A stretch of 64,000 bases of DNA, from IMG/VR virus record IMGVR_UViG_3300028833_000158, positions 1,274 to 65,273 of that record. One strand, 5' to 3'. Under the pieces are notes generated by a model. It saw only the letters and a list, made by a program, of their open reading frames with translations. It was not told the origin of the DNA and did no database searches. This document shows, in pieces, positions 33,265 through 59,369 of the stretch. Source of the stretch: a virus. Its lineage: Duplodnaviria > Caudoviricetes. The translations under genes were made by a program, and so were the position numbers. Within the stretch, counting starts at the first letter, position 1. Every line of letters begins with the position of its first letter.

Positions 33265-33330
33265 TGGCTAAAGGGCGGTGGGAATTTCCTGCCGCTCCGA
33301 TGCCAAGGATATTTTACCCTTTTCTTTTTC
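33265..33330 (+). terminator. Terminator at the end of the late/lysis block
   Basis: GGGCGGTGGG/CCTGCCGCTC stem followed by T-rich tract. Confidence 0.6.
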
Positions 33331-33390
33331 GCAAATTTTTGTTATCCTATTATGAAGGGTAATAGTGCCCTGACAAGAAAGGAGAGAATT

Positions 33391-33618
33391 ATGTATACAG
33401 CTATATTATATGTTATAATGATGCTCGCATTAAATATCTACGTGGCAGCACTTGTCGTAATGGATATTATTGAATCCAAAAAGAAGAAGAAATTCACTTG
33501 GTTTGACTACGAGTGGACTTTATCAAAAGATGGAGAAATAATAGTACACTGGGACAAATTGAGACACAGTATAGAATGGTACGAGAGAAATAACTATGAT
33601 ATGGAGAGCCTGATTTAA
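33391..33618 (+). CDS. Small membrane protein
   Basis: AAAGGAG RBS; N-terminal hydrophobic helix followed by KKKKK. Confidence 0.65.
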   Translation: MYTAILYVIMMLALNIYVAALVVMDIIESKKKKKFTWFDYEWTLSKDGEIIVHWDKLRHSIEWYERNNYDMESLI

Positions 33619-33686
33619 GGCTCTTCTTTTTTTTCTTTTTGCAAATTTTTGTTATCCTATTATGAGGAGACAGAAAGGAGAATTAT

Positions 33687-33821
33687 ATGAAATCTATATT
33701 TATAGCAGACGTAAAGAATTGTCCGACATACTTAGTAATTCACACAATAGAAAGTATTGAAGAACTTGGGTGCACTTGGACATGGACTAAAGACGGCAAT
33801 ATTAAGTATTGGTTTAAGTAA
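33687..33821 (+). CDS. 44-aa hypothetical protein (below ORF-track cutoff)
   Basis: MKSIFIADVKNCPTYLVIHTIESIEELGCTWTWTKDGNIKYWFK; motif plus AAAGGAG RBS. Confidence 0.6.
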   Translation: MKSIFIADVKNCPTYLVIHTIESIEELGCTWTWTKDGNIKYWFK

Positions 33822-33893
33822 AACTAATTTTATTGTCTCCTCTTTTCTTTTTGCAAATTTTTGTTGTCCTATTATGGAAAGGAGGTAAATTAT

Positions 33894-34013
33894 ATGAGAC
33901 CAGACGATATTATGTGTATTAGTCTCGTTATAGGATTTATCCTCGGATGGTTTGTAAAGAAACTTGACGTGGATTTATTCCATAACAAGACTGATAACAA
34001 CAACGAGGACTGA
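33894..34013 (+). CDS. 39-aa membrane peptide
   Basis: MRPDDIMCISLVIGFILGWFVKKLDVDLFHNKTDNNNED; AAAGGAGG RBS. Confidence 0.6.
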   Translation: MRPDDIMCISLVIGFILGWFVKKLDVDLFHNKTDNNNED

Positions 34014-34082
34014 TATTTAGTCCTCTTTTCTTTTTCGCAAAATTTTGTTATCCTATTATGAGGAGACAGAAAGGAGAAAATT

Positions 34083-34274
34083 ATGACAGAAAGAAAAGCA
34101 ACTATATCAGTTAACAATATTGATGAGGTTAAAAGAATTGAAAACATTCTTCACAGAACTTTCAGCGAAGGCAACGATTTATATAAAATCGGAGTAGCTG
34201 GAGTATGGAGTAAGTATCAATTATTTATGCAGCAGTATGAACTTAATATGATTATAGAAGAGTTGATGAAATGA
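34083..34274 (+). CDS. Hypothetical protein
   Basis: Motif plus AAAGGAG RBS. Confidence 0.65.
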   Translation: MTERKATISVNNIDEVKRIENILHRTFSEGNDLYKIGVAGVWSKYQLFMQQYELNMIIEELMK

Positions 34275-34380
34275 TTATTAAATTTTATCGTCTCCTCTTT
34301 TCTTTTTTCGCAAAATTTTGTTATCCTATTATGAGAAGTAAAACTTGTAAACTTTTTGATAATGAAAGGAGATAAAAAAC

Positions 34381-34602
34381 ATGAAGAGATTTTTAACGAT
34401 AGTTTTAACGGCAATTGTAACAGCGATAGTTTTAACAGTTGTGGCAATCTTTAAGTTTGGTTCTGTAAATGTACAGAACCATACCGATAGGTATGTAACA
34501 ACATGTAACGATGTAATCGTTGATATGCACGATGAAACCGTCACAGACAGAATTGATTTCAACATAGATGTAAAGCAGGGATTTAACCTGTTTACAAGAT
34601 AA
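34381..34602 (+). CDS. Small protein with N-terminal TM/signal segment
   Basis: MKRFLTIVLTAIVTAIVLTVVAIF; AAAGGAG RBS. Confidence 0.7.
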   Translation: MKRFLTIVLTAIVTAIVLTVVAIFKFGSVNVQNHTDRYVTTCNDVIVDMHDETVTDRIDFNIDVKQGFNLFTR

Positions 34603-34679
34603 ACTACTTCTCAAAGGTAAAGGAAGCTGAATAAGCTTCTTTTCCTTTTATTTTTCGCAATTATATTTTGCCCCTTTAT

Positions 34680-34823
34680 GAAGAAAAGGGCAGTATAAAA
34701 GTACGGCGCAGAGCTTGAAAGGAGGGGAGCTCTTAATGAAAGATGGAAGCTTGTGAAGTGGTTTCCACGGATCAAGAAAAACGTCCAACTCCCTCTCGGT
34801 ATTAAGATTCCGAGCCTTTTCTT
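34680..34823 (+). ncRNA. Candidate structured ncRNA A
   Basis: Follows the promoter motif; no ORF over 20 aa; 5' AAGAAAAGG pairs with 3' CCTTTTCTT; internal GAGC/GCTC and CTCGG/CCGAG hairpins. Confidence 0.4.
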
Positions 34824-34850
34824 TTTTGCAATTTTTTCATATCCCATTAT

Positions 34851-34984
34851 GAGAAAAGGAACTTGGCACCCATAAGATGCCACACGGAGTGGACACGAGA
34901 AACTCTAGGCAGTGCCGCTAGACGGGTAAGGTGAAAATCCCACTACCAAGTATAAGTTGATTCGAAATCAGCCTTTTCTTTTTT
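34851..34984 (+). ncRNA. Candidate structured ncRNA B
   Basis: Follows the promoter motif; no RBS-ORF; nested stems AGAAAAGG/CCTTTTCT, ACTTGG/CCAAGT, GAGT/ACTC; T-loop-like GGTGAAAATCC. Confidence 0.55.
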
Positions 34985-35035
34985 GCAAAATTTTCATCTA
35001 CTTTTATGACGGATATCGTCAGAAAGGAGATAATT

Positions 35036-35323
35036 ATGAATTTTGCAGAAAATTGTATTGAATGCATTAAAGAAGAAGTGAAAGAGGCAGCAAAAGCTAA
35101 AAAAGCTGAGGATAGGCTTGACAGTGTACATGTTATACTGGATTATCGTCACGAAGGATTTATATTCTTCGAGGTAGATAATGGTATGCAGGTAGACTAT
35201 GATAAGCAGGTATTTTTCAGTGAAAAGGAAGCTAGAAAGCTGTTTATGAGATGCTTCTATAGCAATAAAAGATTTGTTGATGCATGCAGATTCATAGCAA
35301 AACACAAAGGACGGATATTTTGA
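35036..35323 (+). CDS. Hypothetical protein
   Basis: Motif, 5' hairpin GACGGATATCGTC, AAAGGAG RBS. Confidence 0.7.
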   Translation: MNFAENCIECIKEEVKEAAKAKKAEDRLDSVHVILDYRHEGFIFFEVDNGMQVDYDKQVFFSEKEARKLFMRCFYSNKRFVDACRFIAKHKGRIF

Positions 35324-35390
35324 TTATATAGAACGGGGCAGAAATGTCCTGTTCTATTTTCTTTTTCGAAATTAATTCATATCTTATTAT

Positions 35391-35520
35391 GAACGCGGCA
35401 GAAGTGAGTCGAGGGTGAGAGTCCCTCTAGCTGAGATGCTATCACATAGGAAATAAGATTGGGCGACTCCCAACTAGGAAATGAACTAGACAAGACCACG
35501 TACTTTTCTTTTTATATTTT
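35391..35520 (+). ncRNA. Candidate structured ncRNA C
   Basis: Follows the promoter motif; GAGGGTGAGAGTCCCTC T-loop-like hairpin and TTGGG/CCCAA hairpin; no RBS-ORF. Confidence 0.45.
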
Positions 35521-35575
35521 GCAAATTATTCATATACTATTACGAGACGGTAACGTCATTCGAAAGGGGATAAAA

Positions 35576-35797
35576 ATGGTAATGAACATGGCAGTAACTA
35601 TCATAGCAATTATGTCACTTGTGGCGACTATATCATTAGTCATCATGGCAGCAGCTTGCTACCGATTAGTATTCGGTTACAAGAAGCTTATGGATGAAAT
35701 GATTGATGTCATAACTGAACAATTGGATGGTAAGATTTCTGACATCATCGACGAAACGATCGAAGACGAACTAGAGAACGAGGATGGAGCCCAGTAA
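35576..35797 (+). CDS. Small membrane protein with acidic tail
   Basis: AAAGGGG RBS; TM helix; stop inside the CAGTAATG hairpin loop. Confidence 0.65.
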   Translation: MVMNMAVTIIAIMSLVATISLVIMAAACYRLVFGYKKLMDEMIDVITEQLDGKISDIIDETIEDELENEDGAQ

Positions 35798-35861
35798 TGG
35801 GCTCTTCCTTTTATATTTTTGAATTTTTTTCACCTTCTATTATAGAAAGGAGGAAACAATT

Positions 35862-36011: not shown

Positions 36012-36087
36012 GAAATTTTGAGAGGCTTGATATTTAAGCCTCTTGAAATTTTTTCACTTCCTTTAATGGAGGCGGAAAGGAAAATAA

Positions 36088-36207: not shown

Positions 36208-36311
36208 AAGAAACCGCCAGAAAGATTAGAGAGTTATATTTATAGCTCTCTAATTTTTTCATGTTCTATTATGGAGGCAATAGGGTCTCCATAATAGAAA
36301 GGAGAAATAAA

Positions 36312-36635: not shown

Positions 36636-36784
36636 ACTCTATGTAGAGGACTGGATATTTCTGGTCCTCTAAAGTTTTCGCAAATTTTTCATGTCCCTTA
36701 ATGGAAGAGCGGATAGATGCTCTTTTAGTTTTTTCAACTATTATATTTTTTTAAAGTCGGTAAAGAGCCGCGGAAAGGAAAGAA

Positions 36785-37309
36785 ATGACTAACAAGGAAA
36801 GACTGGTAGAAGTGTTTGGTGAAGAGAGCTATAACAATCTTGTAAAGGCAGCGAAGGAATCTAACGCTGTTGATATTTTTGTTTGGCTTCTTGATGAGTT
36901 TCAGGTAAAAACACAGTTGAGTGATGCAGAGATCGAGTATGTCAAGAACGACGAGAAAGTGGTGACTGATATTTTGGCAGAGGAAACCCCTGCAAAGAAG
37001 AGCCGTCGTGGTGGATCACGCAAAGGTAGAGGATATGATCTCAAGTGGTATGTTGATGCAGTGTCAGACTTTTATCTTGGAAAAGCTGCAAGCATTGAGT
37101 TTACTTTGAAAGACGACAGATCTTCCGGAAAGAAGACAAATACCATGGACGGCTTTAAGAGCAGATGGATTGTGGCCGTTAAAAGCCTTGGACTTGAAGA
37201 AGAGGTAATGATTCATAAGTATTATAAAGGAACTTGCAATGAGTGCATTTGTCTTGAGAAACCGAACTTTAAGAACTCAAAGGCAGCTGGCTTTCAGTAT
37301 ATGAGGTGA
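36785..37309 (+). CDS. Hypothetical protein with basic KKSRRGGSRKGRG linker
   Basis: ORF with GGAAAGG RBS. Confidence 0.75.
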   Translation: MTNKERLVEVFGEESYNNLVKAAKESNAVDIFVWLLDEFQVKTQLSDAEIEYVKNDEKVVTDILAEETPAKKSRRGGSRKGRGYDLKWYVDAVSDFYLGKAASIEFTLKDDRSSGKKTNTMDGFKSRWIVAVKSLGLEEEVMIHKYYKGTCNECICLEKPNFKNSKAAGFQYMR

Positions 37310-37316
37310 TGATATT

Positions 37317-37853
37317 ATGAGTAAATCAATATGGATTTTTGAAGAAGATCAAGCCAATATAATTGCAGTGGGAAAGAGCGAATTAAAAAATTTCAATCTT
37401 TACAGCATAGATGAGATATTTATTCCAAAAAAGAAAGTTATTATAAAACATGCAAGAAAAGATTCAGAGTATTTAATAATTCGTATTCATGGAGACAATA
37501 CGAAATATTTAGTTAAATCAAATGATGTGAAAAACGATCACATTATTAGCCATGTTGAATATTTTTGGAATGGTGCTAGAAGTATTGAAGCTGAACCATT
37601 AACTGACGACACTATTGAAATATGTAAAAATAGAGGAATCAAAGTTTTTACTGCAAGACACTGGTGGCCTGGTAATAGTGTTTATGATAAAATTCACACC
37701 ATGTATCATGCTTCTTCTAACATGACAGATGAAGAAATATCGGCATATTGTTTAAAAGAAGAGCAAGATACTCAATTGGAATTAGAAAATTTTCGTAGAA
37801 AAGAAAAAGAAAGAGGAAGTGTCAATAATCATGCTTTGTTTGTAAAAATTTGA
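37317..37853 (+). CDS. Hypothetical protein (AT-rich)
   Basis: ORF with GAGGTG RBS. Confidence 0.65.
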   Translation: MSKSIWIFEEDQANIIAVGKSELKNFNLYSIDEIFIPKKKVIIKHARKDSEYLIIRIHGDNTKYLVKSNDVKNDHIISHVEYFWNGARSIEAEPLTDDTIEICKNRGIKVFTARHWWPGNSVYDKIHTMYHASSNMTDEEISAYCLKEEQDTQLELENFRRKEKERGSVNNHALFVKI

Positions 37854-37872
37854 TTAAAAAGGAGGTAACAGA

Positions 37873-38109
37873 ATGAAAGTCTTGATCATGATTTACATTC
37901 TAATTGGTTTTGTTATTGATGTTATACTTGCTATAGGATTAATCTATTTAAATGAGGGTAAGGTTACACTAGATAAAATAGCTAAGGACTTTAAAAAGAA
38001 GCATCTTAACCTTATCTTGGCGTTATTTTTCATAGAAATGCTGTTTATATGGCCATATGTTATGTTCATATATAAACCAAAAAGTGACATGGAGGTATCT
38101 GATGAGTGA
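37873..38109 (+). CDS. Two-TM membrane protein
   Basis: AAAAGGAGG RBS; hydrophobic. Confidence 0.65.
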   Translation: MKVLIMIYILIGFVIDVILAIGLIYLNEGKVTLDKIAKDFKKKHLNLILALFFIEMLFIWPYVMFIYKPKSDMEVSDE

Positions 38110-38383
38110 TCTTTACAGAGAGAAAGATGGTCAGCTGTCATTCGTAAAGCCAGTCAAAGAAACCGATAAGCGGAGCTTGTATAAGTATACAGGCCCCGTT
38201 TTTCGTTTCGATCAGTGTATTGCCACAGTAACCCTTGAAACCTGGGCCAATACTCCGGCAAAGGCATATAGTAATATGGTCTATCAGGTTAAGCAGAGAC
38301 TTGGCTATCAGCCTACTGCTCAACTAAGAATAAGCAAAAATTTAATTATTAAGGAGGAATTGAAATATGGGAAGACTTGTTAA
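38102..38383 (+). CDS. Conserved hypothetical protein
   Basis: GGAGG RBS; Y.YTGPV.RFD.CI....LETWA.T.AKA.SN..YQ.K pattern. Confidence 0.7.
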   Translation: MSDLYREKDGQLSFVKPVKETDKRSLYKYTGPVFRFDQCIATVTLETWANTPAKAYSNMVYQVKQRLGYQPTAQLRISKNLIIKEELKYGKTC

Positions 38384-38525
38384 TGCAGCACTTATCGTAG
38401 CAGCTATAGGTATAGCTTACGAGTGTGGAAGAGAAAAAGGAGCACGAGATATGTTCTTTAAGTGGACTGAGGCTGTTCTCACAGTTAAAGCCAACGAGGA
38501 GAAGGAGATCGAGAAAGATGAATGA
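38367..38525 (+). CDS. 52-aa hypothetical protein
   Basis: AAGGAGG RBS; MGRLVNAALIVAAIGIAYECG. Confidence 0.55.
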   Translation: MGRLVNAALIVAAIGIAYECGREKGARDMFFKWTEAVLTVKANEEKEIEKDE

Positions 38526-38715
38526 TCTTCGTACAGAGGGGTGCGCCAAATGCGGTGTACCTCTCTTTGAAACCATAGATGGCAGTAATTATAGAAAGAT
38601 ATTTCGTTCGTTTGCCACTAAAAGTGTTAATGATGTTGAGTTGCATTTCTGCATTGATTGCTATAAACAGTTGAATAATAAGTTTGAAGAGGAGAAACAG
38701 GATGAAATGGTGTGA
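38518..38715 (+). CDS. Zinc-finger small protein
   Basis: CAKC...CIDC; AAGGAG RBS. Confidence 0.6.
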   Translation: MNDLRTEGCAKCGVPLFETIDGSNYRKIFRSFATKSVNDVELHFCIDCYKQLNNKFEEEKQDEMV

Positions 38716-39175
38716 CAAGTTTGGTTATCCACAATTAAAAGAAGAAGTTATTAAGCGCGATCCCCAGGCAATTAAAGAAATTCTAGAACTACGTTCTCAG
38801 GATCTTGGTATGCATACTATTGCTAAGACCTTAATTGATAGGCATGTCAGTTATAGAATACCTGAGGGTGATAAAAGGATAGATGATCTGGCTTTCAGTG
38901 AAGGCGGAATTTATGATATTTTATTACCCAAGCCTAAAGACGGATACGACCTCGATGGTTTGAGGAATCTTGCTACTTCTGTTATTGGATGTGCAGTGGA
39001 GGATTATGGATATTCTTTGTCTCATAATATGTCCAACGAGCATCCTGCTTCTGAAAAGTTCTTTACTTCGGGATTGTGTGATTTATATTTAGGTGTGTTT
39101 GATGTTCCTATGACAGGAAAAGATGTAATGAACGAAGTTAAAAATAGGGTAGCTAATGGAGCACGTTGGAGGTAA
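38702..39175 (+). CDS. Hypothetical protein
   Basis: GAGGAG RBS; C-terminal LA..VI..AVEDY...L...SE.FF.S pattern. Confidence 0.7.
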   Translation: MKWCDKFGYPQLKEEVIKRDPQAIKEILELRSQDLGMHTIAKTLIDRHVSYRIPEGDKRIDDLAFSEGGIYDILLPKPKDGYDLDGLRNLATSVIGCAVEDYGYSLSHNMSNEHPASEKFFTSGLCDLYLGVFDVPMTGKDVMNEVKNRVANGARWR

Positions 39176-39178
39176 ATC

Positions 39179-39406
39179 ATGATAGATGCATTATTGATAT
39201 TTGTGCTGTTCTTATCTCTGTTTCTAAACTTTTGCCTAATATCGAGGATCCTTTGCCATGATGCAGAGTTCTATCTGGATATTTCTGACCCAGAAAACGT
39301 AAAGCCGATTCTCAAATTTGACATTGACGAAGTAGAGAATAAGCCGTTCTTTATAGTAAAGGTCATAAAGAAAGAAAATAATTCATGCAATATTAAGGAG
39401 CGGTAA
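39179..39406 (+). CDS. Small membrane-anchored protein
   Basis: GGAGG RBS; N-terminal TM. Confidence 0.6.
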   Translation: MIDALLIFVLFLSLFLNFCLISRILCHDAEFYLDISDPENVKPILKFDIDEVENKPFFIVKVIKKENNSCNIKER

Positions 39407-39812: not shown

Positions 39813-39858
39813 CGCACCAATTGAGAGATTGATATTTATTATCGGTCTCTCTTTTTCT

Positions 39859-39885
39859 TCGCAATAAAAACACTTCCTTTAATGG
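39859..39885 (+). promoter_or_regulatory. Promoter-like motif copy
   Basis: TCGCAATAAAAACACTTCCTTTAATGG; G39861 to ATG 39882 = 21 nt. Confidence 0.7.
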
Positions 39886-40119: not shown

Positions 40120-40944
40120 ATGAGAATTAAGGATGTTCTACCAATTGCATTAACCGCTATTTCTGTTGTTGGAAGCATAGCAGCAGTTATTATGGCAGCA
40201 AATGAAACACCAAAAGCCGTAGAGATTTTAGACGATAAGAGACTCGAAATAGACCCAACAGGTGAGACTGATATTTCTGTAAAGGAAAAAGCGATCATAT
40301 GCGCAAAGAGCTATTGGAAGACTGAAGTTCTGATTGGTGTATCCATAACTGCAAGCATAGCATCGTGTGTCATTGGTCATAAGAATTATCGTGCGCTTAT
40401 GGCTTCAACTGCTGTTTTATCAACTGCTTATGCTAAGCATAAAGATAAAGTAAAGAAGTTCATAGGTGAGGAAAAGGCTAAACTTATCGATCAGCAAGTA
40501 AAAGAAAGCATGAAACTGGAGAAAGCCAAGAATCCTACAGAGCTTGTGTGGTTCTATGATACAGTTTCAGATACATATTTCCAGATGACTTGGCAAGATT
40601 ATTGGAATGCTAAGATCTGCGCAAACCGTGACATTAATACTTACGGTGATATTTCTCTTGGAAACATGTTTCCTAACATAAAGAACTACATGGAAGATAA
40701 GAACTGTGCAGATTATACTTGGTTCTATGATGACATAGTCGAGAACTATGGCTATCCTTGGCTTGATATTTATGAGGAAGCATGGAATATGCCGTATACC
40801 GAGGGAGATAAGAATAACTATGACAAATCCATTCGTGACGGAAAGCCCACATGGGTTATAAGGTATGGTATTTGGCCTCTTCCTCCAGATGTGGCTAGGG
40901 ATCTTCAATATATTGGCACAGAATCAGATCAGGCAGCAACGTAA
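40120..40944 (+). CDS. DUF6353-like protein, paralog 1
   Basis: Hydrophobic N-terminus, A..ETPKA..IL, K.YWK, S..S...G, C-terminal FYD..S..YF. Confidence 0.65.
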   Translation: MRIKDVLPIALTAISVVGSIAAVIMAANETPKAVEILDDKRLEIDPTGETDISVKEKAIICAKSYWKTEVLIGVSITASIASCVIGHKNYRALMASTAVLSTAYAKHKDKVKKFIGEEKAKLIDQQVKESMKLEKAKNPTELVWFYDTVSDTYFQMTWQDYWNAKICANRDINTYGDISLGNMFPNIKNYMEDKNCADYTWFYDDIVENYGYPWLDIYEEAWNMPYTEGDKNNYDKSIRDGKPTWVIRYGIWPLPPDVARDLQYIGTESDQAAT

Positions 40945-40965
40945 ATATTTCACCTTCTATTATGG
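40940..40965 (+). promoter_or_regulatory. Promoter-like motif copy
   Basis: CGTAAATATTTCACCTTCTATTATGG; G40941 to ATG 40962. Confidence 0.7.
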
Positions 40966-41976: not shown

Positions 41977-42001
41977 CGCAAAAAATTCATATATTATTAT
42001 G
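41977..42001 (+). promoter_or_regulatory. Promoter-like motif copy
   Basis: CGCAAAAAATTCATATATTATTATG; G41978 to ATG 41999. Confidence 0.7.
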
Positions 42002-42045
42002 AGGCAACTAACAACCAGCTCACATTCACACGAAAGGAGAATAAA

Positions 42046-49092: not shown

Positions 49093-49620
49093 ATGAGCAG
49101 AAATTTACTCGAAATCGAAAATGCACAGATCATGTTTAAGAACTTCTCTGGACAGGAGAAGCAGGCTATGGTTAACGGTCGTATGAAGATCGTTAACGAA
49201 GCAGGAAAAAGGAACTTTAATGTTCTTATCGATCCCGAAAAGAGCACTATTTACTGGAATGGCGAGCTTGTTACAAATCCTGACTTCGGTCAGGAACTCG
49301 CCAACCTCGGTTTTAATATCATACTGAGACCCGGAAAAGAAGAGGGAGAAGGACCTCAGTACAGGCTCCCTGTTCATGTTGGCTTTGACAACTTTGTTCC
49401 TGATCTCTATCTTGTTACCGGAAACAAGAAGGTCAAACTTGACGCAGAAAGCATCGATTGCCTTGACAACGCCGATATCATCACGGCTGATATATCTATA
49501 AATAACGGTAGATCGTACGTCGGGAATGACGGTAAGGAAAAGGTTAAGGCTTGGTGTAATATTGGATATTTCACCATTGAGCAGAACCGTTTTGCTTCCA
49601 AGTACGATTTTGCTGAGTGA
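49093..49620 (+). CDS. Probable single-stranded DNA-binding protein
   Basis: IENAQI.FKNFSG.E, N.AG.RNF.V, LD.ADI..ADI.I, aromatic/acidic C-terminus; follows the polymerase. Confidence 0.6.
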   Translation: MSRNLLEIENAQIMFKNFSGQEKQAMVNGRMKIVNEAGKRNFNVLIDPEKSTIYWNGELVTNPDFGQELANLGFNIILRPGKEEGEGPQYRLPVHVGFDNFVPDLYLVTGNKKVKLDAESIDCLDNADIITADISINNGRSYVGNDGKEKVKAWCNIGYFTIEQNRFASKYDFAE

Positions 49621-49643
49621 AAATAATTCATACCTTCTTATGA
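49619..49643 (+). promoter_or_regulatory. Promoter-like motif copy
   Basis: GAAAATAATTCATACCTTCTTATGA; then the GGGTAATAGTGCCC hairpin, identical to the one after copy 33331. Confidence 0.7.
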
Positions 49644-50915: not shown

Positions 50916-50942
50916 TTGCAAAAAATCCATCTTCTATTATGG
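50916..50942 (+). promoter_or_regulatory. Promoter-like motif copy
   Basis: TTGCAAAAAATCCATCTTCTATTATGG; G50918 to ATG 50939. Confidence 0.7.
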
Positions 50943-51579: not shown

Positions 51580-51763
51580 TATTTGTGAAGGCGATGATGT
51601 AATCATATCAGGTAAAGTTACTGCCGTACTTGATATTGACCTTGGCGTACGATATCTTGTAGTATTGCCTAGTAATCGTCGTGTAATTGTAGGGGAAATG
51701 GATATTAAGTCATACCGTCCGGAAGTAAAGGTCGATGGTGAAGATCACAGAAAGGGGAATTGA
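51569..51763 (+). CDS. Hypothetical (SH3/KOW-like) protein
   Basis: EGDDVII.GKV.AV pattern; GGAGG RBS. Confidence 0.55.
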   Translation: MENDICEGDDVIISGKVTAVLDIDLGVRYLVVLPSNRRVIVGEMDIKSYRPEVKVDGEDHRKGN

Positions 51764-52001: not shown

Positions 52002-52248
52002 AGGTAACAGACGTAGGAATGATATTTACCAGAAGTATCGTAAGTTTCTGGAGATCGTGGACGACGTAAAGACTTACACATGTGAGACTTGTGGTACGAC
52101 GTTTGGTATCATAGCCTATAAAGATGGAAGGAAATCAGGTACAGCTCAGGCAGGTTTTGCTGAGCCTTGTGAGAAATGTAAGGAGATGATGGCTAATGGA
52201 GATTACGGACAAGGAATTAATAAACCTTCAGAAACAGCAGGCGATTGA
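51976..52248 (+). CDS. Zinc-binding hypothetical protein
   Basis: MNRAERR start; CETC...CEKC; AGGAGG RBS. Confidence 0.65.
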   Translation: MNRAERRSKGNRRRNDIYQKYRKFLEIVDDVKTYTCETCGTTFGIIAYKDGRKSGTAQAGFAEPCEKCKEMMANGDYGQGINKPSETAGD

Positions 52249-52432
52249 AACATTAGAAGATGTGCTTGACTTACTTGATCTGGAAGACCTTGATATTCAC
52301 AGAGAGCTCGAGTTTAAGTTTCTGAACAGACGTGGTAAAGATATGTACGCCGGTATGGATAAGATCCTCAATAGAACTCGTAAGAGAATACGTGAGGCTA
52401 TTGTTTATATTAAGGAGGATATGGATGAATAA
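52196..52432 (+). CDS. Hypothetical protein
   Basis: ORF in an overlapping chain. Confidence 0.55.
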   Translation: MEITDKELINLQKQQAIETLEDVLDLLDLEDLDIHRELEFKFLNRRGKDMYAGMDKILNRTRKRIREAIVYIKEDMDE

Positions 52433-52856
52433 CGATATGGACGCTCAATTCTTATGTAAGGATTGTTCGAGATTCAACCAGTGCCAGTACTACGACAGAA
52501 GAAAAGGTGATTCCTACATCTGTAAATATTTTCACTTGGCAGAAACCTATGGCGTGACTAATGGTGATGTGATGAGGGTGCTGTTTCCGAATTGCGTGCA
52601 AAACGAGAATAGGAATTGGGTAGGTACAAACATTGACGGTTATACAACGTTTTCAACAGTGTGGTGGAATGCAACTTATAAGAAAGAATGTATCAAGACA
52701 TTGCCGACAGTCGAGAAAGAAAGTTGTCGTTGTAATACTTGCAAGAATAATGATGATGAATTAAGTGGCGAATGCTACGAATGTGTCAAAGGGATATTTG
52801 ACCACTATGAAAAAGAGAATAAAACGGAGGTAGAAAATGGACGAACGAATGATTGA
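52425..52856 (+). CDS. Cys-rich hypothetical protein
   Basis: AAGGAGG RBS; CKDC..C, TNGDV.R.LFP, CNTC...CYEC. Confidence 0.65.
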   Translation: MNNDMDAQFLCKDCSRFNQCQYYDRRKGDSYICKYFHLAETYGVTNGDVMRVLFPNCVQNENRNWVGTNIDGYTTFSTVWWNATYKKECIKTLPTVEKESCRCNTCKNNDDELSGECYECVKGIFDHYEKENKTEVENGRTND

Positions 52857-53055
52857 ACAATTACAAAAAGACAATGTAAGAAAGCAGATAATGGATTTTA
52901 TTCCCAACAATCTCGGAATTAACCTTTGTTCTGTCGAGGATATTATTGTACGCAGACAGAAAAATGGAGAAATCACAAAAATCATCATTGATTTTATTCC
53001 CGAAGAACCCGAACCTAAACCAATGGTTGGTTTAGATGGTGCTGTTTTAGCGTGA
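52837..53055 (+). CDS. Hypothetical protein
   Basis: GGAGG RBS. Confidence 0.6.
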   Translation: MDERMIEQLQKDNVRKQIMDFIPNNLGINLCSVEDIIVRRQKNGEITKIIIDFIPEEPEPKPMVGLDGAVLA

Positions 53056-53081
53056 TGCAGAGCAGATATGAGAGGTGAAGA

Positions 53082-53174
53082 ATGCTTGACAAAATCCTAA
53101 TGGTCGCAATTGGCCTTCTTTGTATTTGGCTCGTGTGGTTGCTGATAATGATAATTAAAGGAGATAAGAAATGA
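53082..53174 (+). CDS. 30-aa membrane peptide
   Basis: MLDKILMVAIGLLCIWLVWLLIMIIKGDKK; GAGGTG RBS; ATGA overlap with the next gene. Confidence 0.5.
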   Translation: MLDKILMVAIGLLCIWLVWLLIMIIKGDKK

Positions 53175-53650
53175 GCTACGAAACAAACGATAAGATGGTA
53201 AGTCATCCGGATCATTATAAGTCCGGGAAGTATGAGGTCATTGATATTATTGACGAGTTTACTAAAGACTTGTCAGGAACTGAGGCTGTATGTACGGCTA
53301 ATGCAATTAAGTATATTCTGAGATGGAAGAAAAAGAACGGCATTCAGGATGTGAAGAAAGCTATTTGGTATCTCACACATCTGGTTGAGCATTTGGAATC
53401 TCAGGTGATTCATGCGGATCCAGAATGTGCTAGGAAGATGGAAGAGTTTGAGAATTCTATTGATATTTCCAGAGAGCTCGAATTTGCACAGACTGGCAAA
53501 TGGCCGGAAAGGGAAGTGGAGTATGATGGGCCTGACGAGCACTGTAGAACTTGCATGTCTAGGTTTGAAACGCCGGAGAATGACGAAAAGTGCATTAACT
53601 GTTATGGAAGAGAGAATTATGAACCAGATCTGAATAAGGAGAGCAACTAA
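53171..53650 (+). CDS. DUF3310 / T7 gp1.7-like nucleotide kinase domain protein
   Basis: MVSHPDHY.SG..EVID.I, NAIKY..RW.KKNG.QD.KKA.WYL. Confidence 0.8.
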   Translation: MSYETNDKMVSHPDHYKSGKYEVIDIIDEFTKDLSGTEAVCTANAIKYILRWKKKNGIQDVKKAIWYLTHLVEHLESQVIHADPECARKMEEFENSIDISRELEFAQTGKWPEREVEYDGPDEHCRTCMSRFETPENDEKCINCYGRENYEPDLNKESN

Positions 53651-53844
53651 TGAGCCTACAAGACAAGATAACTAATGCTAAACCCACGACGTTTCTTACA
53701 GATGGGTTGACACAGGAAGAAGTAAAGCAGTGTGTTGAGAGCGGTAGGAAAGTCACAATAGATGACGATGAAGCTCCAACTACACCTATGAGAGTTGTAG
53801 ATATTCCGGGACAGGAAAATAAAATCTACGTGCCAATTAATTGA
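53650..53844 (+). CDS. Hypothetical protein
   Basis: AAGGAG RBS. Confidence 0.55.
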   Translation: MSLQDKITNAKPTTFLTDGLTQEEVKQCVESGRKVTIDDDEAPTTPMRVVDIPGQENKIYVPIN

Positions 53845-53869
53845 TTAAATAGGAAAAGAGGTATGAATT

Positions 53870-54601
53870 ATGGAAGAAGAAAATAAACTTTGTTGCAACT
53901 GCAAATTTGTGACAGTACTTTATAATGAAGAGCCTTGCAAGTCTTGTCATTTGAGATCAAATTGGCAGAGTAATGTCAAATTCAAGACGGGTGATTTAGT
54001 GGTTTCGAAAAACGACCCTTGTAGAAAAAACCTTTATGTTTATTTGCGTAATAAATGGGTTCTGCGCGTACCAAATTATGTCACTACTAGGTCAAGTTAT
54101 ATTATATCATCAGCCGGTTATCGTGGTTCCGAAATGATAGATAAACTTATACGTAATTCTAACGCCGAATGTGAATGGTTAGATGATCTAGAATATGCCA
54201 GCCCGGAAATTATTACGCAACACGATGACAGAGCGGAGAATCTTTATATTCCTGAGCCTTTTGGCGAATGGTTTCCTAAATTAATTGAAGAGGAACGTGA
54301 TCAGAAACAGAAGATAGCATTAGATGAAGTATATAGCGCTAAAGAATTCTTCACATTTTTTGATAGGAAACCAAAAGTATTCACCACGCCAAACATGATC
54401 AAGAACGTCATCTTCAGTGATCCGGCTACTATTATATTCTGGGAGGACGGTACTAAGACCGTTGTGAAAACTCAGGATGGCGAGAAGTATGATAAGGAAA
54501 AAGGATTTGCAATGGCGGTATGTAAGAAGGTATTTGGTAATGAAAGAGACTACTATAATGTCTTTAAACGTTGGATGAGAAAAGGAAAAGAGGTAAAATA
54601 A
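53870..54601 (+). CDS. Hypothetical protein with conserved phage C-terminal domain
   Basis: IKNVIF.DPATI.FW.DGTKTVVK...E.YD.EKG.AMA..KK..GN. Confidence 0.75.
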   Translation: MEEENKLCCNCKFVTVLYNEEPCKSCHLRSNWQSNVKFKTGDLVVSKNDPCRKNLYVYLRNKWVLRVPNYVTTRSSYIISSAGYRGSEMIDKLIRNSNAECEWLDDLEYASPEIITQHDDRAENLYIPEPFGEWFPKLIEEERDQKQKIALDEVYSAKEFFTFFDRKPKVFTTPNMIKNVIFSDPATIIFWEDGTKTVVKTQDGEKYDKEKGFAMAVCKKVFGNERDYYNVFKRWMRKGKEVK

Positions 54602-54602
54602 T

Positions 54603-55202
54603 ATGGAAATAGCATTTTATATTCTGTTAGTGAGCTGGGTAATACTGCTTGCGTGTTGTATAGTTGCTATATCGCGTTTTAAGAAGGCTAATGACAGTCT
54701 TGACACCAGCCTTGATACGGTGATTGAGCGTAATGAAGAGATTCAGAGCCTTATGAATCAGCTTGATGTCGCCGAGCAGGACATAGACTTTTGGAAAGAT
54801 ACATGCGACAAGATGCAGTGGACAATAAATGATCTCAATAAACGCATAGGTAACATGAAAGCCACTGAAGAAAACGGAAGTATTCTATATGTGGATAAGG
54901 GGAACATTGAGTATGTCAATGCAGCTATCGATATAAGCGCTAATGTAATAAAAGATATTACTGAAGGTAGACTTGATATTGATCAAGTAGAAGACTCATT
55001 ACGTTTTAACATTAAGCGTGTGATGATGGACGAACTGCTGTCACATGCTAAGTTCTATGTGACTTATGATATTTCAAGCAATTCTTATAGTTTTGTAGTA
55101 AGGATTCCTATTGTTGCGTTAAATGGTTCAGAGCGGGAATACAGTAAATGTGCTGGGTATCCGCTTACAAATATTCTGCTTGAAAAGGTTAAGGAGGAAT
55201 AA
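54603..55202 (+). CDS. Membrane-anchored coiled-coil protein
   Basis: N-terminal TM helix followed by heptad repeats. Confidence 0.65.
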   Translation: MEIAFYILLVSWVILLACCIVAISRFKKANDSLDTSLDTVIERNEEIQSLMNQLDVAEQDIDFWKDTCDKMQWTINDLNKRIGNMKATEENGSILYVDKGNIEYVNAAIDISANVIKDITEGRLDIDQVEDSLRFNIKRVMMDELLSHAKFYVTYDISSNSYSFVVRIPIVALNGSEREYSKCAGYPLTNILLEKVKEE

Positions 55203-55203
55203 T

Positions 55204-55473
55204 ATGTTACGTTTAGATTTAAATGATATCAACGAAACAGTCTTATTTGTTAATCCCGTGAATGGTGTTAAGATTCTTAAACAAAAAGATGATGATTCTG
55301 AAGAAACAACCTATGTATTATTAATCGATACGGGTGACATCGTGTGCTATGCTGAATATAATTCAGAAGACATTCGCGATGCGGTTTATGGGTATGTCCT
55401 GAATAAGATTAATGAATACTTATTTCAACAGATTGAAGCTGCTCAGTTGCGTTGTAAGGAGGAAACATGTTAA
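55204..55473 (+). CDS. Hypothetical protein
   Basis: AAGGAGG RBS. Confidence 0.6.
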   Translation: MLRLDLNDINETVLFVNPVNGVKILKQKDDDSEETTYVLLIDTGDIVCYAEYNSEDIRDAVYGYVLNKINEYLFQQIEAAQLRCKEETC

Positions 55474-55703
55474 AAGCTATAGTAACGGTGATGGACGAAA
55501 ATGATAGAATCATTCAGGCTAACAGATTGATATTTGAGACTGATCCTTTTGGTACACCTGTTGGCTGTGGCATTGAGCATGACTTTCATTTTAAGATCAT
55601 CACTGCAGATGAAGAGCTTATACGTAAGGTCACAGAAGAAGGTCTTAAACTTAGTGCTGAAGAAATTCATAAAATGATAATTCATAAAATGATGGAGGAA
55701 TAG
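55467..55703 (+). CDS. Hypothetical protein
   Basis: AAGGAGG RBS. Confidence 0.6.
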   Translation: MLKAIVTVMDENDRIIQANRLIFETDPFGTPVGCGIEHDFHFKIITADEELIRKVTEEGLKLSAEEIHKMIIHKMMEE

Positions 55704-55704
55704 A

Positions 55705-56118
55705 ATGAACAAGGATGAGATTTTGATAATTATGTATCCTTTTTGGATGAAGAATAATCAACTTAGTTCAATGTATGAAAACATTCTTAAACAAAGAGCA
55801 AATAATCTTATACTTCTTCCGGATTACTGTAAGGTTGTTACAGCACCTAAAGATGTCGAGATTAAGACAGAGATGGAGAATGACGATTCATCTTCACTTT
55901 GGTTACTTGTTGATAATCCGAATTATTCTCCATTTGATCGTAGAACTAGACCAGTAAGTCTGAAATGTGACGTATGTCATAGGCGTATAGACAAATGGGG
56001 TGATGATTATTTGAGATGCCCTTATTGTGGTAAGAAGCATACGTTTGGAGCGGAAGAGGAGAAGGAATATACTAATGAAGAATTAGATGAAGCTTTTGAT
56101 AATGGAAGAGGAGGTTGA
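55705..56118 (+). CDS. Zinc-ribbon protein
   Basis: CDVC...CPYCG; GGAGG RBS. Confidence 0.65.
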   Translation: MNKDEILIIMYPFWMKNNQLSSMYENILKQRANNLILLPDYCKVVTAPKDVEIKTEMENDDSSSLWLLVDNPNYSPFDRRTRPVSLKCDVCHRRIDKWGDDYLRCPYCGKKHTFGAEEEKEYTNEELDEAFDNGRGG

Positions 56119-56124
56119 TATTTT

Positions 56125-56484
56125 ATGGGATACAGACCTACTATATATGTAAATCGTAGACCGAAATTGGAACTTGGTAAATTTTATGGGTATGTAAACA
56201 TGGATAATCTTAAGTCAGTTAAGTGGCTCGAGGATCACGGTAAAATAGAGCTGGATGAGATGTTTGCTGGATACGGACCGGAAATAGATTTTACTGCTGA
56301 TGAGTTTCGTGAATTCTGGGATCTTTATGTTCAGGATATTAACGAATATGTTTGGAAAGAAGACGATTGGATAAGATATGACGAACCATTCAATCCTGAT
56401 TATTATCCTCATGCCTGGAAAAGAGGAACTTTCAAAGAAAACTTATATGATACAGACGATGTAAAGACTATTAAGTGGTTTTAA
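56125..56484 (+). CDS. Hypothetical protein
   Basis: AGGAGG RBS; MGYR...Y, GKFYGY. Confidence 0.7.
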   Translation: MGYRPTIYVNRRPKLELGKFYGYVNMDNLKSVKWLEDHGKIELDEMFAGYGPEIDFTADEFREFWDLYVQDINEYVWKEDDWIRYDEPFNPDYYPHAWKRGTFKENLYDTDDVKTIKWF

Positions 56485-56499
56485 GGAGGATTGATATTC

Positions 56500-56686
56500 T
56501 ATGCGGTGGCGGAATAGGTAGACGCAAATACAAATTCATGAGGATTCCAGCAGCTAACGGTTGGCAGTCATGCGAGGGTTGAGACTACGTGCCGAAAAAG
56601 CGGGACCAGGTGGAGATCATTAAACTCAAATCATGAAGAAAAAGACCGTATGTAAGGTGACAGAAATTCAAATCCTTACCCGCATA
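56500..56686 (+). ncRNA. Oversized tRNA-like element (Leu/Ser-type D arm, no canonical anticodon arm)
   Basis: Perfect TATGCGG/CCGCATA acceptor stem, TG-GCGGAATAGGTAGACGC D arm, GTAAGG/CCTTAC T stem with TTCAAAT; ~125-nt structured insert; no encoded CCA. Confidence 0.6.
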
Positions 56687-56705
56687 TTAAAAGAAAGGAG
56701 GAACA

Positions 56706-56909
56706 ATGAAAGTTTCCGAACTATATAATGAAATGCTTAAGTTATTGGAAGACGGAAAAGGAAATTATGAAATTATGATTCGCGTTGCGGACGATGACGA
56801 AAAAAGGGATTTGATATCTCATATTGACAATGTTAAATCTTTTTCTTCAAAAGTTGGATATGTTGAACTGACATCTGTTAATAACGCGTATTTAGATTGG
56901 AGAGAATGA
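56706..56909 (+). CDS. Hypothetical protein
   Basis: AAAGGAGG RBS. Confidence 0.6.
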   Translation: MKVSELYNEMLKLLEDGKGNYEIMIRVADDDEKRDLISHIDNVKSFSSKVGYVELTSVNNAYLDWRE

Positions 56910-56942
56910 CATTTGGTTCAAAGTAAGGAGGATTGATATTCT

Positions 56943-58103
56943 ATGATCGATCTTGACAAAATGCTTTACGATCATCAGAAGAAAGCAATCCGTAATATGA
57001 GGAACGGTTGTATACTTAATGGTGGAGTGGGGTCTGGGAAATCTCGGACCTCACTTGCTTACTATTACCAGAAAGAAAAAGATCGTCCTCTTTATATTAT
57101 CACCACTGCTATGAAGCGTGATTCAAGAGAGTGGGAAGAAGAGGTTTTATATTTCTTTCCTTGTAAAGCCACGGCAATAGACAGTTGGAATAATATTAAG
57201 AAATACACGGATGTAAAAGATGCTTTCTTTATATTTGACGAAGACCGTGTTACAGGCTATGGCGCATGGGTTAAGGCATTTCTCAAGATAACAAAGTCTA
57301 ACCATTGGATAATATTATCAGCTACGCCTGGAGACACATGGTCTGATTATATTCCTGTATTCATAGCTAATGGTTTCTATCGTAATAAGACAGAATTCAC
57401 GCAAAAGCATGTCATATGGAATCGTTATACTACCTTTCCTAAAATAGATGGTTATGTTCATACTGGATATTTAAATGGCCTTCGTAGGAAAGTTCTAGTT
57501 AATATGGAAGACGAAAGGAAGACAGTACAGCACCATGAAGATATTTATTGTACGTATCCGATTACGGATTATAAGCGTGTTATTAAAGATCGCTGGGATA
57601 TTTTCAAAGAGGAACCATTCCAGAATGCAGGAGCGATGTGCTATTGCCTCAGGAAAGTTGTTAACTCAGACCCTAGCAGACTTGATAAGGTATATGATAT
57701 TACAGAACGGAAGGGAAAGGCTATCATATTCTACAACTACGATTACGAACTTGAGCGACTTAAGGCTGGATTTGCAGATGGATATTTTGAAGTTGCGGAA
57801 TGGAACGGACACCGACATCAAGAAATTCCTGTTGAGAGTGAAAGATGGATATACTTGGTGCAATACAATTCTGGGTCAGAAGGATGGAATTGTGTCTTAA
57901 CTGACACTATTATATTTTACTCGCAGACATACAGCTATAAGCAATTGAAGCAGGCGTGTGGTAGAATAGATAGGATTAATACTCCTTACCATGATTTATA
58001 TTTTTATCATCTTAAGAGTCGTTCGGGCATTGATCTGGCAATCAGTCGTGCACTTGCTGATAAGAAGAACTTTAATGAGAATGATTTTGTTGTTGGGATG
58101 TAG
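56943..58103 (+). CDS. SF2 (SNF2/DEAD-like) helicase
   Basis: LYDHQ, GGVGSGKS, IFDE, ILSATP, EGWN, QACGRIDR. Confidence 0.9.
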   Translation: MIDLDKMLYDHQKKAIRNMRNGCILNGGVGSGKSRTSLAYYYQKEKDRPLYIITTAMKRDSREWEEEVLYFFPCKATAIDSWNNIKKYTDVKDAFFIFDEDRVTGYGAWVKAFLKITKSNHWIILSATPGDTWSDYIPVFIANGFYRNKTEFTQKHVIWNRYTTFPKIDGYVHTGYLNGLRRKVLVNMEDERKTVQHHEDIYCTYPITDYKRVIKDRWDIFKEEPFQNAGAMCYCLRKVVNSDPSRLDKVYDITERKGKAIIFYNYDYELERLKAGFADGYFEVAEWNGHRHQEIPVESERWIYLVQYNSGSEGWNCVLTDTIIFYSQTYSYKQLKQACGRIDRINTPYHDLYFYHLKSRSGIDLAISRALADKKNFNENDFVVGM

Positions 58104-58142
58104 TAAATAATTCATGCCTTCTTATGAAAGGAGGAAATATTT

Positions 58143-58403
58143 ATGTTTGAAAACAAAGCTTTTGAAAAGATTTATTACTCGAGATTTATAGCATCTTGGT
58201 ATAATTCTGGAGGAAAGCGTATCAGATCATACGTTGACAGTGAAAAGAGACCTAACGATTTTGTTAGGTGGCTTCGCACGTTAACTATAAATGATAAGCA
58301 AATTCCGGAAGATGTAATCAAGGATATTCTCGAAATGGCAACAAATGGCAAGGCAGAGTTGGAATGGAACTTAAACAAATACTTAAAAGAGATTGGGCAG
58401 TAA
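58143..58403 (+). CDS. Conserved hypothetical protein
   Basis: I.YSRFIASW...GG, F..WL..L, I..MA.NGK.ELE; stop in the CAGTAATG hairpin loop. Confidence 0.75.
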   Translation: MFENKAFEKIYYSRFIASWYNSGGKRIRSYVDSEKRPNDFVRWLRTLTINDKQIPEDVIKDILEMATNGKAELEWNLNKYLKEIGQ

Positions 58404-58463
58404 TGCCCTTTCCCTTTTATTTTGTAAATAATTCACTTCCTATTATGAAAGGAGGTGATGAAT

Positions 58464-58655
58464 ATGACTTATGGAGAATTCAAAGACGTAGTTAAAAAGA
58501 CTTATCCGAATAGCGAGAATCATTTTGCAATTGGAGGCGGAATATTATTAAAGATGCCTTCATGGAAAGATGAAGAGATTAACGCATTGACGGTAAAAAG
58601 TTATGAACAGGATAGCTACGACGATGAAAACTGGTTTTTTGTCACAGCAAAGTAA
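58464..58655 (+). CDS. Hypothetical protein
   Basis: AAAGGAGGTG RBS. Confidence 0.65.
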   Translation: MTYGEFKDVVKKTYPNSENHFAIGGGILLKMPSWKDEEINALTVKSYEQDSYDDENWFFVTAK

Positions 58656-58741
58656 CAAATTAAGAGGGCTTGATATTTGATCAGGCTCTCTTATTCTTTT
58701 CGTAATTAATTCACTTCCTATTATGAAAGGAGGTAATTATT

Positions 58742-58957
58742 ATGACTAATAAAAGTTTTGAAAACACAATGATGGCACTTATTGAAGTTGGAAAACTGAT
58801 TAAGTTTGACGAGACCAGCAGTGATTACACTGATGATCTTTGTGACAAGTTAGCAGAAGTAACTAAAATATTGTCATCTATGTATGGTGATCAACAACTT
58901 AGAAAGAGTAAAAAACTCAATAAAAAACTTGAAGAAATATACGGAGATTGGGGCTGA
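58742..58957 (+). CDS. Hypothetical protein
   Basis: AAAGGAGG RBS. Confidence 0.65.
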   Translation: MTNKSFENTMMALIEVGKLIKFDETSSDYTDDLCDKLAEVTKILSSMYGDQQLRKSKKLNKKLEEIYGDWG

Positions 58958-59019
58958 AATATGCCCCTTTCCCTTTTATTTTTTATCGAAGGTTTATCAT
59001 TTGGGCTATTTTTGGGTCA

Positions 59020-59290
59020 AAAAATCGTGGTTAAAAATGTGGTTAAAAATAACCATTTGGTTAAAAATATTTAACCATTTGCAAAATTTTTTGGAATTTT
59101 TGGTTAAAAATGTAAAAATTTTTAACCAAATGGTTAAAAATAAAAAATTTTTAACCAGGCTGAAACCCAGTATTCATGCGGGTTTCAGAGGTTTTTGGTT
59201 AAAAGGTTAAAAATATTTTATAATTAATGTGAAAAAAAAATATGTATATATAATAATATAGAAAAATTTTTAACCATTTAACCAAAATGA
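59020..59290. repeat. AT-rich iteron-like region, candidate replication origin
   Basis: GGTTAAAAAT at 59029, 59041, 59059, 59102, 59132 and later, inverted TTTTTAACC copies interleaved, plus a long A/T-only stretch. Confidence 0.65.
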
Positions 59291-59313
59291 TATTTTTCAC
59301 GATTTTTAGAGTT

Positions 59314-59369
59314 TCGCAAAAAAATGTTGCCCTTTTATGGGAGAGAAGGTTATATGATGACCTTTTCTC
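59314..59369 (+). promoter_or_regulatory. Promoter-like motif plus 5' hairpin upstream of the nuclease/RNAP operon
   Basis: TCGCAAAAAAATGTTGCCCTTTTATGG (G59316 to ATG 59337), then GAGAAGGT..ACCTTTTCTC stem. Confidence 0.7.

Follow-up and report, generated by a model that had tools for sequence, protein, structure and literature searches.

A 25-nucleotide motif in 24 co-directional copies in a gut phage genome: candidate promoters of a predicted two-barrel phage RNA polymerase

The window analysed here is a 64,000-nucleotide (nt) stretch of DNA that comprises bases 1274–65273 of a 65,273-base pair (bp) virus contig from a gut phage (IMG/VR record IMGVR_UViG_3300028833_000158), and its long open reading frames (ORFs) all lie on the + strand. 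The left 33 kilobases (kb) hold the structural genes, including that of a tape measure protein of 2,890 amino acids (aa), and the right half holds small genes of unassigned function together with a replication set composed of a 1,316-aa primase-polymerase, a single-stranded DNA-binding protein, a helicase, a VRR-Nuc-like endonuclease and a Cas4-like exonuclease. The replication set is followed by the gene of a 991-aa protein (60261–63236, +), a predicted two-barrel RNA polymerase. The subject of this analysis is a 25-nt motif that recurs ahead of the small genes, of the replication genes and of the operon of the 991-aa protein, and that we regard as the probable promoter of this enzyme. The same sequence is present in two sheep-gut metatranscriptome runs, which provided RNA data.

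A sequence-only reading of the window had pointed out at least 23 copies of a promoter-like motif in a single register, and all of the 23 coordinates given there indeed bear it. The degenerate 24-nt pattern GNAAWWWWWWNNNNNNYYNTWATG has 19 exact matches, all on the + strand, against 0.18 ± 0.44 (maximum 2) in dinucleotide shuffles; the motif is about 100-fold above chance. Scored leave-one-out with a weight matrix 25 nt wide, the 23 sites reach 14–32 bits, and one extra, weaker copy at 39374 (15.6 bits, 21 after refitting) brings the total to 24. At 8 bits or more the matrix finds no site on the − strand, none in window 1–33000 and none in the 1,273 genome bases outside the window, and Markov shuffles yield 0–2 matches; the restriction to the + strand and the absence of copies from the 33 kb of the structural block are thus both confirmed. 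The consensus is a T-rich tail followed by Y-GCAAAWWWTT-CAT-N-TCC-TATTATG-RRRGG, with the announced gap of 13 nt between GCAA and TATTAT, and the three bases after the G of the ATG triplet (G24) are purines in nearly all copies. Some of the earlier description needs amendment: a conserved G 21 nt before an ATG holds generally, but copy 36250 starts with C and the triplet is ACG at 35521 and ATA at 35821, and the placement is mostly intergenic, although the copies at 39374, 40941, 49619 and 58103 adjoin the preceding ORF or overlap its last codons. Seven copies, five at 33331–34310 plus those at 34657 and 59316, form a subclass (GTT) with G/T-T, not C-A, at positions 11–12. The copies and the two features associated with the polymerase are the following (SD, Shine-Dalgarno sequence; HTH, helix-turn-helix; positions relative to G24 as +1):

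33331..33355, + strand: copy 1, GTT subclass; heads a 75-aa ORF
33641..33665, + strand: copy 2, GTT subclass; after the terminator 33603–33626
33853..33877, + strand: copy 3, GTT subclass; SD from +4
34037..34061, + strand: copy 4, GTT subclass; after the terminator 34005–34025
34310..34334, + strand: copy 5, GTT subclass
34657..34681, + strand: copy 6; no SD-bearing ORF downstream
34828..34852, + strand: copy 7; no SD-bearing ORF downstream
34985..35009, + strand: copy 8; hairpin from the G
35368..35392, + strand: copy 9; long leader; within the bin of top RNA depth
35521..35545, + strand: copy 10; ACG in place of ATG
35821..35845, + strand: copy 11; ATA-G; SD at +4; adapter-flanked RNA contig end at 35857
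36045..36069, + strand: copy 12; overlaps the tail of the upstream terminator
36250..36274, + strand: copy 13; first base C
36680..36704, + strand: copy 14; heads the 36785–39406 operon; leader hairpin and T tract at 36702–36727
39374..39398, + strand: copy 15, new and weaker; RNA contigs start at 39400 and 39407
39861..39885, + strand: copy 16; SD at +3; after the terminator 39823–39851
40941..40965, + strand: copy 17; SD at +4
41978..42002, + strand: copy 18; heads the primase-polymerase operon; adapter-flanked RNA contig end at 42015
49619..49643, + strand: copy 19; A-11 equivalent is C; RNA depth increases past the copy; adapter-flanked end at 49653
50918..50942, + strand: copy 20; heads the 50971–58103 operon (helicase)
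58103..58127, + strand: copy 21; SD at +3
58424..58448, + strand: copy 22; SD at +3
58702..58726, + strand: copy 23; SD at +3; after the terminator 58661–58693
59316..59340, + strand: copy 24, GTT subclass; at the head of the endonuclease-exonuclease-RNA polymerase operon; the polymerase gene starts 945 nt further on
59339..59383, + strand: leader hairpin beginning at the predicted start, then a T tract; terminator-like attenuator
60261..63236, + strand: 991-aa two-barrel RNA polymerase candidate flanked by HTH modules; PHROG 4291; GADFDGD at residues 551–557

Relatives compared with this phage include Lactococcus phage P092, Arthrobacter phage Mudcat, Gordonia phage Vardy (L018), Streptomyces phage Scap1 (L016), MT835495, and L001, L008 and other metagenomic sequences. 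Scanning of the full genome and of relatives, the check proposed with the original observation, recovers the same motif in the same register, with 10 copies in P092, 7 in Mudcat, 9 in Vardy, 7 in Scap1, 4 in L001 and 2 in L008; for MT835495, self-BLAST and matrix refitting gave only two credible copies, the remainder having drifted to noise and not being used. According to self-comparison and matrix refitting, the motif lies in the complete relatives on the + strand only, in the arm beyond the tail genes. The 24 copies match in register the family consensus drawn with six other phages, TCGCAA-N-WW-TTACA-N4-CTATWATG-RRR, in which, with phages weighted equally, T20 is conserved at 100%, T23 at 97%, G24 at 94% (A otherwise) and C11 at 92%. 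The motif-bearing genomes span 33–61% G+C, and all of those compared encode a PHROG 4291 protein, the family of the 991-aa protein. The phage group so defined comprises the Actinobacteria-phage supercluster, Lactococcus phages of the 1706 type and gut Firmicutes phages. By tblastn, a homologue of the latter is found in 250 of 50,697 phage records, with hosts among Arthrobacter, Gordonia, Streptomyces, Rhodococcus, Microbacterium, Curtobacterium, Lactococcus and Faecalibacterium and some records being gut contigs; in the annotated complete genomes among the matches listed, the gene lies near the right end. Conversely, the exact 16-base family pattern was matched by at least 106 IMG/VR stretches, and the polymerase gene is present in 8 of 10 sampled contigs bearing it, the other two being a 19%-complete fragment and a complete contig with a single pattern match. 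In 8 of 12 relatives examined the motif stands 885–953 nt upstream of the polymerase start, as in L001, L005, L006, L008, L010, L011 and L012, and the phage under study shares this family trait, with a copy about 0.9 kb upstream that heads a nuclease-nuclease-polymerase operon. That a copy precedes the operon holding the polymerase gene, as had been claimed, is therefore true and conserved in relatives, and the proposed link to the 60261 protein is strengthened by the co-occurrence of motif and two-barrel RNA polymerase across phages of two host phyla.

Some further observations concern the divergence of these sequences. The five GTT copies at the start of the array are near-identical, and the orthologous polymerase-operon copy in L001 belongs to the same subclass. 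In the actinobacterial phages Vardy and Scap1 a second conserved block, GAGACCCCTAC, lies between motif and SD; it is common to phages of different host genera and absent in Firmicutes phages. A megablast search with 12 kb of the promoter array against the phage collection gave no match.

The resemblance of TATWAT to a bacterial −10 element calls for a comparison with host sigma-A promoters. No −35 hexamer is found 16–18 bp upstream of TATWAT, where the sequence is an unconserved T-rich terminator tail, GCAA being placed at 13 nt; positions 15–17 are C-rich, so that there is no TG extension either. A scan with the sigma-70 consensus does not flag the motif sites and is not enriched in the regions that contain them (42 hits for 34 expected at 32.5–42.5 kb, 31 for 29 at 56–64 kb) or at the genome start (7 for 9). 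The equivalent of A-11 (A19) is an A in 16 of the 24 copies here, in none of the four of L001 and in 70% family-wide, the most conserved bases being T20, A22, T23 and G24, and no shifted register gives both A-11 and T-7. Moreover, because AAGGAGG (the SD) begins 3–4 nt after G24 in seven units, a start 6–8 nt after TATTAT would fall inside the ribosome-binding site. The sequence features taken together support the view that the motif is not a sigma-A promoter, as originally argued from the short gap. T23/G24 would instead act as a pyrimidine-purine step of the kind from which two-barrel enzymes commonly initiate, and a start at or next to this G, already suspected, is consistent with the SD at +3/+4, with the leader hairpins from +1 and with RNA contig ends 12–15 nt downstream.

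Two other promoter classes were considered and rejected. A promoter of a T7-type single-subunit polymerase was discarded on the grounds that the genome proteins searched have no match to RNA_pol (Pol-A-type) of Pfam and that the fold of the candidate enzyme matches two-barrel enzymes. The promoter of the N4 virion polymerase is a short DNA hairpin, with a 3-nt loop, upstream of the start; inverted repeats around TATTATG, which falls in the loop, occur here in only 8–9 of the 24 copies, with loops of 6–10 nt, and are absent in relatives. These TATTATG hairpins are probably a by-product of the C-rich positions 15–17 facing the purine-rich SD.

The organization of the right half into transcription units can be followed from its terminators. 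Terminator-like hairpins with T tracts number 26 for 5.3 expected, a five-fold enrichment, and many of them end a few bases ahead of a motif copy, from which it follows that the array at 33.3–36.7 kb is a row of self-contained units, each composed of motif, short leader, small ORF and terminator. Long operons are headed by the copies at 36680, 41978 (primase-polymerase), 50918 (helicase) and 59316 (endonuclease, exonuclease and 991-aa protein). Hairpins had been said to begin often at the G of the ATG, and a 5′ arm does begin at 0 to +3 in 9–10 of the 24 copies. In two operon leaders (59339–59383 and 36702–36727) it is a terminator-like hairpin with its T tract that starts right at the predicted start. 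That of the polymerase operon begins at +1 or +2 in this phage, L001 and MT835495 and at +4 in L008, with a U tract after each, and its position is conserved and its sequence diverged in L001, L008, MT835495, L006 and L010. This suggests that expression of the polymerase is attenuated by the leader hairpin; as the hairpin begins at the predicted start of the leader, any self-activation of the operon, the feedback loop put forward in the sequence-only reading, would be damped. Between the polymerase operon and the structural genes, across the contig junction, there is no terminator-like site, and the approximately 2 kb that separate them contain no motif copy or other repeated signal save a 44-bp tandem duplication.

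Two or three units (34657–34984, 35368–35458) have no ORF of at least 25 aa behind an SD; Rfam and tRNA scans of the whole window, these units included, gave no match. Such promoter-terminator units without an ORF may produce small phage RNAs.

The 991-aa protein matches phrog_4291 over its full length (E=0). In an alignment of ten sequences, the protein and nine relatives, the GADFDGD loop (residues 551–557) and R506 and P508 of the second barrel are invariant; it thus carries both the metal-binding DxDGD loop and the second-barrel R-x-P of two-barrel RNA polymerases. Matches to sigma region 4 and other HTH modules are located near residues 50–130 and 940–990. A search of the sequence against Protein Data Bank chains gave no match, and the fold was therefore tested with an AlphaFold model, for which Foldseek returned QDE-1 as the top match (probability 0.97), followed by Pol IV, the Thermus phage enzymes P74 gp62 and P32 gp64, RDR2 and Pol II, with low global TM-scores. 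On this basis the protein is predicted to be a two-barrel RNA polymerase. The family has been predicted from sequence before, as the '1706' family of YonO-like proteins (PMC2919709) and as the signature HTH-RdRP-like protein (RdRP, RNA-dependent RNA polymerase) of a group of Actinobacteria and Firmicutes phages (10.1101/842583). Pfam searches of 35 other proteins of the early/middle region revealed no sigma factor and no HTH regulator, and a possible alternative is that small proteins of unassigned function recognise the motif instead.

RNA data consist of assembled contigs, not reads, from two runs of one study and one sample. Depth over 31–51 kb varies from 0 to 145x, with only 2–5x over the last late genes and a peak of 145x and 100x in the two runs in the bin 35003–35669; such unevenness speaks for RNA rather than for carried-over DNA. 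Three of the four adapter-flanked left ends shown are placed at +14, +15 and +12 from G24 (+1) of the copies at 35821, 41978 and 49619; by our own estimate a random position in these 20 kb has about a 2% chance of lying within 20 nt after a copy. For the weak copy at 39374, contig starts are seen at +4 and +11, and in one run (X2) the depth rises from 5 to 30–70x on passing the copy at 49619, where the A-11 equivalent is a C. Adapter orientation fits + strand RNA in 4 of 5 cases, too few to be used. These observations favour discrete transcripts whose beginnings lie no more than about 15 nt from the 3′ end of the motif.

We consider that the 24 copies are promoters of the phage's own two-barrel polymerase, the 991-aa protein, with a start at or near G24, and assign to this reading a probability of roughly 0.6, the assignment of the enzyme being its inferred part. 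The sigma-region-4-like HTH modules at both ends of the enzyme would contact the upstream blocks (T)CGCAA (motif positions 0–4) and TTCAT/TTACA (positions 8–13), separated by one turn of the helix; melting would take place in the A/T-rich CTATWAT stretch (positions 17–23), and RNA synthesis would proceed from the T23/G24 step into the purine-rich initial sequence. Each small early gene would be transcribed as a unit of its own, running from the promoter through a short leader and an ORF, or an RNA without one, to a terminator hairpin with its T tract, and the replication genes would be carried by longer units. One copy heads the operon of the polymerase itself, the hairpin from +1 probably limiting its expression, and the structural genes, without copies, would need another mode of expression.

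Several points weigh against this assignment. TATWAT does look like a −10 element, in which T23 would take the place of T-7. The co-occurrence of motif and enzyme lies within one phage lineage, in which both could be co-inherited without interacting, although that lineage covers hosts of two phyla. The AlphaFold model is of moderate quality (predicted local distance difference test score, pLDDT, 65; predicted template modelling score, pTM, 0.40), and in the literature searched there is no experimental test tying the PHROG 4291 polymerase family to a promoter or to polymerase activity. The contig data fit starts within about 15 nt upstream of contig ends, a resolution that gives neither single-base start nor strand nor enzyme. 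The structural genes have no motif, whereas YonO of SP-beta transcribes late genes (PMC5467207). Lastly, if the enzyme reads its own operon, an initial supply of it would have to be brought in by the virion or made through transcription by the host.

A bolder version of the proposal, which we hold only tentatively and would not expect to prove correct in full, has the 991-aa enzyme carried in the virion and injected, recognising a double-stranded bipartite promoter by itself, through its built-in sigma-region-4-like HTH modules, and running the whole early/middle programme and its own gene independently of the host polymerase. The enzyme would in that case be a sigma-independent, one-chain relative of the cellular RNA polymerases. 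With respect to packaging, the N-terminus of the polymerase, LEHYGTPRHSGRYPWGSG (window 60321–60380), is invariant in 10 relatives and resembles the YLEHHGILGMKWGVRR motif, which occurs in two head-module proteins here (window 582–680 and 3263–3360) and in head-module proteins of Scap1 (L016, about 2322) and MT835495 (L014, about 11160). This N-terminus might serve to target the enzyme to the capsid, which hints at virion packaging but goes no further; literature on virion proteomics of relatives yielded nothing relevant.

Among the alternatives, the one that fares best, while still improbable in our view, is that host sigma-A uses TATWAT as a −10 and that a phage protein bound to GCAA/TTACA replaces the −35 contact in the manner of T4 MotA; the DNA-binding protein could even be the 991-aa protein through its HTH modules. 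TATWAT is like a −10, with T23 conserved at 97%, the conserved box 13 nt upstream has MotA-box geometry, and the motif was interpreted in the Vardy genome note as containing a sigma-70 −10 (PMC9671010). However, a third of the copies, and every one of the four in L001, have no A at the A-11 equivalent, and the copy at 49619, with C there, still shows the step in depth. Seven units would lose their SD if transcription began 6–8 nt after the block, and one contig begins as early as +4. Outside the polymerase, Pfam shows no activator or sigma-appropriator domain in the proteins searched, and an activator, too, would need injecting at the start of infection.

Less probable again is an unusual early promoter read by the host alone, from which the phage polymerase would be made in order to transcribe only the motif-less late genes, like YonO. 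Such a scheme offers a simple logic of infection, with early genes and polymerase gene under one promoter type, and agrees with the transcription of the late operon of SP-beta by YonO (PMC5467207) and with the lack of a terminator-like site between polymerase operon and structural genes. It requires, on the other hand, that hosts of two phyla read one 25-nt signal without a −35 and often without A-11, and the upstream blocks are conserved with the phage lineage and not with the host; the SD geometry counts against it as well, and no distinct late-promoter motif was found. We give very little credence to a role at the RNA level or another DNA role (processing site, translational operator, replication or packaging signal) with transcripts starting elsewhere: contig ends cannot separate primary from processed ends and the C-rich positions 13–17 can pair with the SD in 8–9 copies, but this pairing is not seen in relatives, Rfam gives no match, conservation lies in an A/T-rich primary sequence with no covarying structure, and most copies directly follow a terminator, so that the unit needs a promoter there.

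Several known systems resemble the preferred arrangement of phage polymerase and multi-copy promoter. T7 promoters are about 17 copies of a 23-bp sequence that ends at the start, with GGGAGA as initial sequence. The present array is similar in its two dozen or so co-directional copies of about 25 bp running up to a G start and then purines, paired with terminators and 5′ hairpins, but T7 employs a Pol-A-type single-subunit polymerase, whose gene, unlike the arrangement proposed here, is not behind its own promoter. T4 middle promoters have a MotA box about 12–13 bp upstream of a sigma-70 −10 and no −35 element. The motif shares with them the conserved box about 13 bp upstream of a −10-like hexamer and the missing −35; in contrast, they need an intact sigma-70 −10, which is not the case here, and a start 6–8 nt downstream, which here would cut the SD in seven units.

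A close parallel is the Thermus phage P23-45, which has two single-chain two-barrel polymerases, gp96 (in the virion) and gp64 (non-virion), with their own motifs in 14 and 7 copies (PMC10770324). Like the phage analysed here it is a siphophage in which a single-chain two-barrel polymerase is combined with a multi-copy motif, and motif and enzyme co-occur among relatives (PMC10770324). There the motifs sit just upstream of mapped starts, with starts and occupancy measured by ONT-cappable-seq and ChIP-seq (chromatin immunoprecipitation sequencing), whereas here the starts are predicted from sequence and contig ends; the motif sequences are unrelated, the P23-45 enzymes have no fused HTH modules, and one of them is fused to the tape measure protein (PMC10770324). 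Multi-copy promoters specific to a phage polymerase are thus already known, from T7 and P23-45 (PMC10770324). YonO of SP-beta, the sole bacterial or phage RdRP-like single-chain two-barrel polymerase shown to be DNA-dependent with a defined start in vivo (PMC5467207), belongs to a family distant from that of the 991-aa protein, has no HTH ends and serves one promoter (PyonO) and one late operon (PMC5467207).

The motif itself was found in the literature searched only as a 'sigma-70-like' repeat of Gordonia phage Vardy, described as a five-copy 50-bp intergenic repeat carrying a sigma-70 −10 (PMC9671010); searches with the motif sequence and at cluster level were otherwise empty. This repeat is the same motif, of which we find 9 in-register copies in Vardy, whose genome also has the homologous polymerase gene. 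Its describers did not link it to a phage polymerase (PMC9671010), and the downstream GAGACCCCTAC block is specific to actinobacterial phages. New here are the 24 copies, above every genome compared, the use of ribosome-binding-site spacing to place the start, the conserved leader resembling an attenuator ahead of the polymerase operon and the first, indirect, RNA evidence in vivo.

Some other features of the genome may be mentioned. Three paralogous DUF6353 proteins are encoded in the middle region (40120–40944, 41123–41971 and 43112–44038), two of them directly behind motif-headed small ORFs. A protein with a Hydrolase_2 cell-wall hydrolase domain is encoded at 49983–50504 amid the replication genes, apart from the structural and lysis block. 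At the contig start (genome 1–88, outside the window) a 44-bp sequence is tandemly duplicated, and the last 450 nt of the contig (window 63700–64000 region) are A/T-rich, non-coding and end in a G7/C6 hairpin; duplication and A/T-rich end may mark the end of the genome or a region of late control, or may have arisen in assembly.

Single-chain enzymes related to the cellular RNA polymerases are considered to be similar to the ancestor of this whole class, and how they find their promoters is poorly known. The family considered here counts at least 250 members among sequenced phages, many with culturable hosts, and offers a 25-nt candidate promoter, a predicted start base and two fused DNA-binding modules, which makes sigma-free promoter recognition by a two-barrel enzyme directly testable. 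Should the proposed reading hold, two widespread annotations would need correcting, 'HTH DNA-binding protein' for the polymerase and host-type promoter for the motif, and phages of this family would provide a compact orthogonal transcription system for Gram-positive hosts.

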